DNA of 44,878 nucleotides. Source: a virus. This document shows, piece after piece, positions 12,001 through 15,000 of this stretch; positions within the stretch are counted from its first letter, which is position 1; every line of letters starts with the position of its first letter. Made by a program: the position numbers. Location: the UHGV virus genome UHGV-0250870, one strand, 5' to 3'.

Positions 12001-15000
12001 TGGTTCGGTTTGACATTGAAGAGGCATGGGCGGAGCGGCAGTTAAAGAGGGTAACGCGATAGTGTTGTTGATTTTTCCCGAATCTGTGGTAAATTTGCTC
12101 TAACGATGGGCGTTTTATGCCTGACGTTAGAAGATTTTTTACACCCCGCCGCCTGGCGGGTTTTTTATGACTGAAATCGCGTCAGTACAGTAAACGCGCT
12201 GGTGGCGGTGAATACCTGTCTTTCAGCTTGCTGGCTTTTTCGACAAGAGTTATTGGTGTGTCACGTTAACCGGAAAAGGGAAAAAGACATGCTAAAACAG
12301 CAGGATATGACAGAAACCGCCAGAGTAGTGTTTAATGAATTAAGCGTTACCGAACCGGCGACAGTCGGGGAGATTGCACAGAATACTTACCTTTCACGCG
12401 AACGCTGCCAGTTAATACTGACCCAGCTGGTTATGGCGGGTCTGGCAGACTATCAGTTTGGTTGTTACAGACGCCTTCAGTCCTGAAGGCTTTTTTATTT
12501 GTGGTAAATGGGCGGCTGGTGGGTGTTAGGGGCACTCACCAGCCATCTGCTCATGCGTCTGGATCACAAGCAAACCTCAGGCCCACTGCTTTGCGCAAAA
12601 GCAGAATGAGCCTATCAGAGACAGGCTTAATGATCCATGCTTAATACTGTAAAAATATCCAGTTGTGAGTTAATCAACGCCGACTGCCTGGAATTTATCC
12701 GGTCGTTACCCGAAAATTCTGTTGACCTGATAGTCACGGACCCGCCGTACTTTAAAGTGAAGCCTGAGGGCTGGGATAACCAGTGGAAGGGCGACGATGA
12801 TTACCTGAAGTGGCTGGACCAGTGTCTGGCGCAGTTCTGGCGGGTGCTGAAACCTGCCGGAAGTCTTTACCTGTTCTGTGGTCATCGCCTGGCATCTGAT
12901 ATCGAAATCATGATGCGTGAACGCTTCAGTGTGCTGAACCATATTATCTGGGCGAAGCCGTCCGGACGCTGGAACGGATGCAACAAGGAAAGCCTGCGGG
13001 CGTATTTCCCCGCCACAGAGCGCATTCTGTTCGCGGAACATTATCAGGGGCCGTATCGTCCGAAAGATGCCGGGTATGCGGCGAAGGGCAGTGCACTGAA
13101 ACAGCATGTGATGGCCCCGCTGATTTCTTACTTTCGTGATGCGCGCGCGGCCCTGGGGATAACGGCAAAACAGATTGCAGATGCCACAGGAAAGAAAAAC
13201 ATGGTGTCGCACTGGTTCAGTGCCAGTCAGTGGCAGCTACCGAACGAAAGCGATTATCTGAAATTACAGTCGCTGTTTGCCCGGGTGGCAGAAGAGAAAC
13301 ATCAGCGCGGTGAACTGGAAAAGCCCCACCACCAGCTGGTGGATACGTATACGTCACTGAACCGGCAGTATGTGGAGCTGCAGAGTGAATATAAGCATCT
13401 GCGGCGGTATTTTGGTGTGACGGCGCAGGTGCCGTACACGGATGTGTGGACACATAAACCGGTGCAGTTCTATCCCGGGAAACATCCGTGCGAAAAACCG
13501 GCAGAAATGCTGCAGCAGATAATCAGCGCAAGCAGTCGTCCGGGTGACCTGGTTGCAGATTTTTTTATGGGCTCAGGTTCAACGGTAAAAGCGGCACTGG
13601 CGCTCGGGCGTCGTGCGATTGGCGTTGAACTGGAGACCGGACGTTTTGAGCAGACAGTCAGGGAAGTTCAGGATTTAATCGTTTGAAACGGATGAGATTG
13701 CAGAATTAATTACGCACCATTATTATTCTGCTCCCGGCCCTTTAGCTCAGTGGTGAGAGCGAGCGACTCATAATCGCCAGGTCGCTGGTTCAAATCCAGC
13801 AAGGGCCACCATCACATACCGCCATTAGCTCATCAGGAAAGAGCGCCAGCCTTCGAAGCTGGTTGCGCGGAGTTCGGGTCCCCGAAGGCGGTCCATTATC
13901 TGTATCCTGCGTTGTTAGCTCAGCCGGACAGAGCAATTGCCTTCTAAGCAATCGGTCACTGGTTCGAATCCAGTACAACGCGCCACACTTATTTTCCCTG
14001 GCTCGCTTTTGCGGGCTTTTTTTTAAATGTCTCACAATTCAGGCGGTTGACTGTTGTCTGGTTTGCGGGGAGTTTGTTAAAAGAAACTGGCATGGTGAAT
14101 CCCCCTGTGCGGAGGGGCAATCAGCGAGTAGGTATATGGGATAATCGCGGATTCAGGTGCTGGTACTGAATTCACCGGGAGGCACCCGGCACCATGCAAT
14201 GGCACATAGCGCCACTCTCCAGCCCCTCTCCGGAGGGGCTTTTCTGTGCCGGATACATCACAGTTTCTGGAACCTTAGGTACTACAGTATCAGTCAGGGT
14301 GCTATATTTTCAGATGTGATGAAAGCCTGTCAGCAGGCAGGGCGTATCGGAAATGACCCAGTAGAGAAAACGTTGACTCAGATACCGGTGCTGAGTTACC
14401 GGGAAACCGGCATCACATGACCGCTATCCTTCCAGGCCCATCCGCTCCGGTGGGCCTTTTTACTGCAGAAAACAGGTTCCCCGTTAAATGCTATGTTGCT
14501 CACAATTCAGTAAGTTGACAGTTGCCTGTCAGACTGGGCATTTGTTAAAAAAATTTCGCATGGTGAATCCCCCTGAGCGGAGGGGCGACTGGTGACGGTA
14601 TAATCTCTGATTATCAAAACGAGAATGACGCGGGTTTAGTGGCACCGGGCTGAACTCACCGGGAGGCACCCGGCACCATGTGCATGATGATACAGATACG
14701 CGGCTTTAGCCCCTCTCCGGAGGGGCTTTCTTATGGACAAAAAAAGCCCGCGCTGGGAGACGCGGGCGGCAAGGAATAAACAATAAAACGTGAAGTAATA
14801 TTTCAGCTGGCGAATAATACCCCATAGTAATCACTCTGCGCAACTGCGCGGTCTTTTTCGAATTGCGGGCTGTAGTCTCCCTTCTGCCATTGTCCTGTAA
14901 CTTCCGGACTTCAGCCTGCTCCTTATCTGACTCACAACATTATCCCGCCCGGGAGGATTCATGGCATTTAAACACTATGACGTGGTCAGGGCGGCATCGC

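Follow-up and report, generated by a model that had tools for sequence, protein, structure and literature searches.

The 44,878-nucleotide stretch of viral DNA analyzed here (UHGV virus genome UHGV-0250870, hereafter the window, taken at its full length) carries three adjacent tRNA genes, which almost certainly represent the pT-ileZ-argN-argO-terminator tRNA cassette of lambdoid (Stx-type) Escherichia prophages. For the middle gene, the likeliest reading, to which we assign a probability of roughly 0.6, is an impaired copy of argN that is drifting towards a pseudogene; the slot that it occupies is most likely dispensable, having apparently decayed repeatedly in related prophages. The first of these proposals follows from the low Rfam score of the middle tRNA, its weak cloverleaf and the loss of the T arm from its predicted fold. 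The second follows from the many alleles found at this position, their diversity at the level of spacer DNA, the lack of compensatory changes among them, and missing tRNA calls in PGAP annotation. A sequence-only reading of the same DNA had left it open whether the middle tRNA is a functional variant or a decaying copy; the evidence leans towards a decaying, impaired copy without settling the question.

ARAGORN calls three tRNA genes in the whole window and no others. All lie on the plus strand within positions 13736-13986, where the sequence-only reading had placed a cluster of Ile-CAU, Arg-UCG, and Arg-UCU tRNAs, and Rfam (tRNA model RF00005, gathering score 29) agrees with these assignments. 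The first gene, ileZ, encodes tRNA-Ile(CAU) and spans positions 13736-13811 (72.5 bits). It is followed, after a spacer of 7 nucleotides (13812-13818; 9 nucleotides in 933W-type clusters), by the middle gene (13819-13895, 43.4 bits), a derived and structurally weakened allele of an argN-type tRNA-Arg(UCG). A 13-nucleotide spacer (13896-13908) separates this gene from argO, which encodes tRNA-Arg(UCU) and spans positions 13909-13985 (70.1 bits).

Gene order, strand, spacing, and anticodons match those of the cluster in phage 933W, as does the site of the cassette after the late-gene antiterminator gene Q and before nanS-p-like and lysis genes. Plunkett and colleagues reportedly described this ileZ-argN-argO cluster with the 933W genome in 1999. 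The 933W record (AF125520) lists, in order, pR', qut, terminators, a 'pT putative tRNA promoter', ileZ, argN, argO, a terminator, and then stx2AB, and its codon notes assign AUA to ileZ, 'CGH; CGG?' to argN, and 'AGA; AGG?' to argO. Identity to 933W is 76/76 for ileZ and 76/77 for argO, which bears out the likeness to Stx phage tRNAs that had been proposed for these two genes, and 70/77 for argN, for which the same comparison had been suggested. The pT and terminator sequences also align. Unlike 933W, the window lacks stxAB after the cassette, having two STnc100-like elements there instead, and contains a DNA methylase gene between Q and the tRNAs.

An Escherichia coli ATCC 11775 prophage (NZ_CP033092.2) shares the same flanking arrangement of Q, methylase, and tRNA genes, and is 100% identical to the window over the 301 bases of positions 13700-14000; the remainder of this prophage differs, its structural genes being mosaic. 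PGAP labels the three genes in the ATCC 11775 stretch tRNA-Ile, tRNA-Arg, and tRNA-Arg (EAS44_RS14245, EAS44_RS14240, and EAS44_RS14235, respectively). The 301-base stretch matches 289 phage records, chiefly of Stx2-converting phages, several of which name the genes ileZ, argN, and argO. Among contigs representing one genome per species, the cassette was found only in Escherichia and two metagenome bins. The near-certain identity of the cassette is based on the tRNA calls and anticodons, the alignment to 933W, the identity to ATCC 11775, the flanking genes, and the homology of ileZ to ileX of E. coli K-12. Public annotation of the cassette dates back to the 933W genome, and RefSeq already annotates the very sequence found here.

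That chance alone produced a tRNA-like sequence in the middle, with no gene there at all, is next to impossible. The middle call scores lowest among the three, and its predicted fold is no better than that of shuffled sequences (z-score -0.45), but its E value in an Rfam scan of the whole window (4.5e-06) is weak, yet well above chance. It is also closely related to 933W argN and lies in the same position between ileZ and argO, and its homology to intact, canonical alleles effectively refutes this explanation.

The window argN differs from that of 933W at 7 of 77 positions. Three of the differences are structural (A52·C62, G58, and A6·A67) and none of these is present in 933W argN, which forms 20 Watson-Crick pairs and one G·U pair, has a UUCGAGU loop, and falls into the canonical group. 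The mismatches were located by cmscan at A13824·A13886 (acceptor stem, 6:67) and A13871·C13881 (T stem, 52:62), exactly the A-A and A-C mismatches that the sequence-only reading had described, along with the TTCGGGT loop. With 19 of 21 stem pairs formed, the cloverleaf is not fully paired. The T loop, UUCGGGU, has G58 at position 13877 and so departs from the T54-Psi55-C56-R57-A58 pattern, in which A58 is nearly universal among tRNAs; intact alleles have UUCAAGU or UUCGAGU. The Rfam score of 43.4 bits compares with 58.4 and 56.0 bits for two intact alleles (loci L008 and L004), and the cloverleaf energy is -20.0 kcal/mol for the window allele versus -31.3 kcal/mol for intact alleles. In the minimum-energy fold of the window allele, a UUCGG/CCGAA hairpin is formed instead of the T arm.

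To place this allele among its relatives, 127 clusters were sampled, comprising the window and 126 others found via the exact ileZ 3' end and the exact argO 5' end, with a free gap between them. The middle slot shows 51 distinct alleles in these clusters, and ARAGORN fails on 12 of the 51. It is fully canonical and intact in 46 of the 127 clusters (36%), of the window type in 26 (20%), otherwise defective in 17 (13%), and rearranged or deleted, so as to be unrecognizable as a tRNA, in 38 (30%). One canonical allele (CCGCCAU…GGGG-UUCAAGU-CCCC-GAUGGCGG) forms 21 Watson-Crick pairs. Pairwise diversity among the sampled clusters is 0.175 for argN, 0.13 and 0.20 for the spacers, 0.060 for argO, and 0.003 for ileZ. 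Because the sample is anchored on exact ends of ileZ and argO, decay of these two genes is understated in it.

No compensatory double changes were found in argN (0 cases), and pairing was no better than in shuffles, a comparison of 38 alleles of 77 nucleotides that is uninformative as a test for structure-preserving evolution. Within the window-type lineage, later changes break pairs (G10T; G-to-A in the second pair of the T stem, 50:64 in standard numbering) or convert CCA to TCA, and no pair-restoring change was found there. A second, independent sample, drawn by BLAST from complete E. coli genomes, is in agreement: of 30 records picked at even spacing, each with 94% or more of the query covered, PGAP annotates two tRNA-Arg genes in 18, one in 11, and 'tRNA-OTHER' in one. 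Twelve of these 30 clusters are thus without a PGAP tRNA-Arg in the middle slot, the missing call having been checked to be that of the middle gene.

Several other versions of the slot deserve description. In a common 80-nucleotide version (locus L010 and about 30 other loci; L132 413-512) the acceptor stem and D arm are kept, a different hairpin replaces the anticodon arm, and the T loop is G-rich and of variable length (G12 in one copy). This version is called by neither ARAGORN nor Rfam, and is either unannotated or labeled 'tRNA-OTHER' by PGAP. There are also 66-nucleotide deletion alleles. The argN of phage Stx2a_WGPS6 (AP012539; L001 3115-3191) is weak (43.0 bits, -20.1 kcal/mol), with a T-stem A·C mismatch and three G·U pairs; its designation as "933W-type" was ruled out, the true 933W argN being canonical. 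A literature search on ileZ, argN, and argO and on the function of prophage tRNAs in enterohemorrhagic E. coli found nothing on argN function or decay.

The codons that these tRNAs could read are enriched in the prophage, as seen in a codon-usage check of the kind proposed with the sequence-only reading. In mechanically chosen, non-overlapping prophage open reading frames (ORFs), some of which are surely spurious, AUA occurs at 9.1 per 1000 (4.3 in 50 kb of host core genes), AGA at 6.5 (1.9), AGG at 6.5 (1.3), CGA at 5.3 (3.0), and CGG at 16.3 (4.8). All five codons are therefore 1.8 to 5 times commoner in prophage ORFs than in the host core, and the pattern holds when only late genes are counted. 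This enrichment supports the usual rare-codon rationale for phage tRNAs, under which a UCG tRNA could be useful as well. CGA and CGG usage combined shows no shift between genes flanking dead and live copies of the middle gene (Mann-Whitney p = 0.72). Other lambdoid phages (for example SfI, Sf6, and P21) carry tRNA genes for Asn or Thr after Q (PMC3636060). The cassette is likened to these by position downstream of Q and by role, as a proposed supplement for codons overused by the phage; the tRNA species differ.

A number of observations weigh against an impaired middle gene. The anticodon arm is kept, with a 7-nucleotide loop (CUUCGAA) containing U33 and a stem of five Watson-Crick pairs, and the D arm, G18/G19, and the encoded CCA are intact. 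In E. coli tRNA-Arg, identity for arginyl-tRNA synthetase (ArgRS) resides in A20 and C35, plus G36 or U36. The D loop of the middle tRNA (AUCAGGAAA) has A20 after G18G19 and, together with C35 and G36 of the UCG anticodon, retains these identity positions. ARAGORN, Rfam, and PGAP all still call the gene, ARAGORN with the UCG anticodon that had been read by eye and PGAP as tRNA-Arg. PGAP tRNA calls derive from tRNAscan-SE; as far as PGAP reflects that program, tRNAscan-SE does recognize the middle tRNA, since the identical sequence in ATCC 11775 is annotated as tRNA-Arg, and the failure that would have told against the proposed cluster is not seen. Some natural tRNAs tolerate single A·C or other mismatches. 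The window-type allele is moreover common, at least 266 complete genomes matching the 301-nucleotide query at 99% identity or above; copies of the cluster in complete E. coli genomes number about 7,600. New mutations in the window-type lineage number about 6 in the 77 nucleotides of argN and about 4 in 62 nucleotides of argO, rates that are not clearly different in an underpowered comparison, so that relaxed constraint on argN is not demonstrated by the mutation count in this lineage. Finally, with CGG enriched 3.4-fold, a working UCG tRNA would be useful.

It is thus possible, if doubtful, that the middle gene encodes a functional variant of tRNA-Arg(UCG), which would undergo processing and charging by ArgRS and would decode CGA as well as, through wobble, CGG for the phage. 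The ARAGORN call, the Rfam score above the gathering score, and the PGAP annotation speak for such a tRNA, as do the intact A20, C35, G36, and anticodon arm, the wide distribution of the allele, the enrichment of CGG and CGA in prophage ORFs, and the equally low score (43.0 bits) of the annotated argN of Stx2a phage AP012539. These points are set against the loss of the near-universal A58, the twofold and uncompensated disruption of pairing in the acceptor/T-arm helix, and a cloverleaf 11 kcal/mol weaker than that of intact alleles in a tRNA whose predicted fold is without a T arm. In addition, about 30% of the sampled clusters have a plainly dead gene in this slot, with CGA and CGG usage unshifted, which argues that the function is dispensable. 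On this balance an argN copy that is impaired, and probably on its way to a pseudogene, is the preferred reading.

The hairpin that displaces the T arm invites a different interpretation. It spans positions 13873-13886 and pairs the derived G57, G58, and A67, and is favored by RNAfold over the T arm by 7 kcal/mol; the derived A52, in turn, weakens the normal T stem. This predicted hairpin could be a coincidence or a selected fold. The middle element might be kept as a non-decoding structured RNA: a tRNA-like spacer guiding the processing of the tricistronic precursor, a UUCGG/CCGAA hairpin RNA, or a decoy for nucleases that attack tRNAs or a variant that escapes them. The pairing of all three derived bases in one alternative hairpin is consistent with such a role, and so is the persistence of the acceptor-stem ends in the rearranged 80-nucleotide alleles, whose predicted fold remains four-way and tRNA-like. 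We nevertheless consider a structured RNA very unlikely: no covariation backs any structure, many alleles lose the T-loop features used by RNase P and the tRNA elbow, 66-nucleotide deletion alleles exist, and nothing ties the middle element to a nuclease. Furthermore, the hairpin was noticed post hoc, and alleles carrying only one of the changes that favor it occur as single-change intermediates (a12, a23, and a34).

It is interesting to speculate on the slot as a whole, beyond the window allele. In many lineages it might hold a tolerated or selected non-canonical tRNA-like RNA rather than a decoder or, in a milder form of the proposal, record the ongoing and repeated loss of a redundant CGA/CGG decoder next to AUA and AGA decoders under strong selection. 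We regard this as very unlikely. If true, the tRNA-like RNA could be involved in processing of the precursor, or could serve to decoy or escape nucleases directed at tRNAs.

The first gene of the cassette is labeled "Met" by ARAGORN, which reflects only the literal CAU anticodon. It is identical to K-12 ileX, encoding the host tRNA-Ile2 with anticodon CAU, at 68 of 76 positions and has an Ile2-type, not a Met, body. As in ileX, the anticodon is CAU and the core of the anticodon arm is conserved; unlike ileX, ileZ carries 8 substitutions, is phage-borne, and forms part of a tricistronic unit. The substitutions include a compensatory change of the 6:67 pair, from C6-G67 in ileX to U6-A67. C4-G69 and C5-G68 are kept as in K-12 ileX, and these pairs are determinants for TilS. 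The tRNA is expected to read AUA once C34 carries lysidine. Both ileZ and argO had been said to fold cleanly. This holds for argO, in which no pair is flagged, but not for ileZ, in which cmscan marks the uppermost pair of the anticodon stem, A27·C43, as non-standard; this mismatch is invariant in every sampled copy.

The single difference between argO of the window (13909-13985) and that of 933W (L130 2296-2372) is A37 in place of G37 (933W anticodon loop CUUCUGA), and most copies have A37. The argO tRNA reads AGA and possibly AGG. In five loci (L015, L058, L060, L078, and L125, the last from Escherichia albertii), argO ends directly after the anticodon loop, with unrelated sequence beyond the break (…CTTCTAAGCA, break, GCTGTGGTTGCACTCC…). 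The truncation was considered as the mark of an integration site and rejected, a second argO half-site not being found in the DNA of those loci and a paper on satellites proving unrelated.

In the proposed working of the cassette, the three genes would be transcribed as one precursor, from a small upstream promoter and/or by Q-antiterminated read-through from pR', and this precursor would be cut into three tRNAs whose CCA ends are already encoded. Intact ileZ (AUA) and argO (AGA/AGG) would thereby help to decode codons that the host uses rarely and the phage genes use more often. The middle argN allele has gained three structural defects relative to intact alleles, namely the mismatches at 6:67 (A·A) and 52:62 (A·C) and the loss of A58 to G. 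The near invariance of ileZ, the fair stability of argO, and the free drift of argN suggest that selection maintains AUA and AGA/AGG decoding in these phages, and not CGA/CGG decoding. The mildly new point is this population picture, in which, next to a hardly changing ileZ and a fairly stable argO, the argN slot drifts like spacer DNA. The cassette has little import beyond correct annotation: where pipelines report 'two tRNA-Arg' in such prophages, one of the two may be a middle gene that is structurally compromised here and plainly dead in about one-third of related prophages.

Upstream of ileZ, a promoter-like element (TTGCAG-N17-TATTAT, 13698-13726, +) aligns with pT of AF125520. It matches 8 of 12 consensus positions, with 3 of 6 in the -35 hexamer, and so lies below the threshold of a generic scan. 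Among sampled clusters with a recognizable ileZ, the 37 bases preceding the gene keep TTGCnn-N17-TATTAT across 36 distinct upstream contexts, while the sequence farther upstream varies: in some clusters the methylase gene ends there, and in others a terminator or unrelated sequence is present. A 'pS tRNA promoter' of Stx2 phages is mentioned in the literature, as are single-nucleotide polymorphisms in the first tRNA-Arg of clade 8 O157 (PMC2858043). The agreement of the conserved motif with the 933W pT annotation and with this report points to a putative pT promoter. The cassette is closed by an intrinsic-terminator-like hairpin (GGCTCGC-TTTT-GCGGGCT followed by T8, 14000-14025, +), which was identified by scan and aligns with the 933W terminator; a hairpin and T run 3' of argO are conserved in most sampled clusters.

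Apart from the absence of stx, the genes around the cassette are laid out as is standard for the late region of Stx-type lambdoid phages. The late-gene antiterminator Q (11241-12062, +; Pfam PF03589 Antiterm, E = 5e-51) is followed by two terminator-like hairpins found by consensus scan, one with a T run that is a candidate tR' (12145-12166, +) and a second at 12473-12496 (+); the 933W record, too, has terminators in the corresponding interval from Q to the tRNAs. A DNA N6/N4 methyltransferase gene (12637-13686, +; Pfam PF01555, E = 2.3e-44) lies directly upstream of the cassette, and its counterpart in the identical ATCC 11775 stretch is annotated DNA-methyltransferase. On the 3' side of the tRNAs, Pfam identifies DUF1737 and SASA-esterase (nanS-p-like) domains, a holin (16888-17181), and a lysozyme (17600-18133). 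Positions 12000-15000 contain 14 terminator-like hairpins, whereas shuffles predict 3.5; this excess suggests that terminators densely punctuate the leader region of the late operon.

Taken over its full length, the window represents a mosaic prophage, and no complete E. coli genome in the collection contains all of it (best match, 92% coverage at 97.4% identity). Two Rfam matches to the STnc100 small RNA lie just past the argO terminator, at 14061-14251 (+) and 14529-14738 (+), scoring 136 and 165 bits. The Stx2 phage at locus L001 has one STnc100 match, after stx2B, and the second copy in the window lies approximately where Stx phages have stxAB. In another locus (L011 3051-3110, minus strand), a match to AgvB (an anti-GcvB small RNA) at the gathering score overlaps a sub-threshold AsxR match beside STnc100; the Rfam scan of the window gave neither AgvB nor AsxR at the gathering score. 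Farther from the cassette, Rfam matches the sok antitoxin RNA of a hok/sok locus at 9041-9216 (+), hokD being annotated in the similar ATCC 11775 stretch, and DicF RNA at 175-226 (-). Both sok and DicF are typical of Qin/Rac-like cryptic prophage regions.

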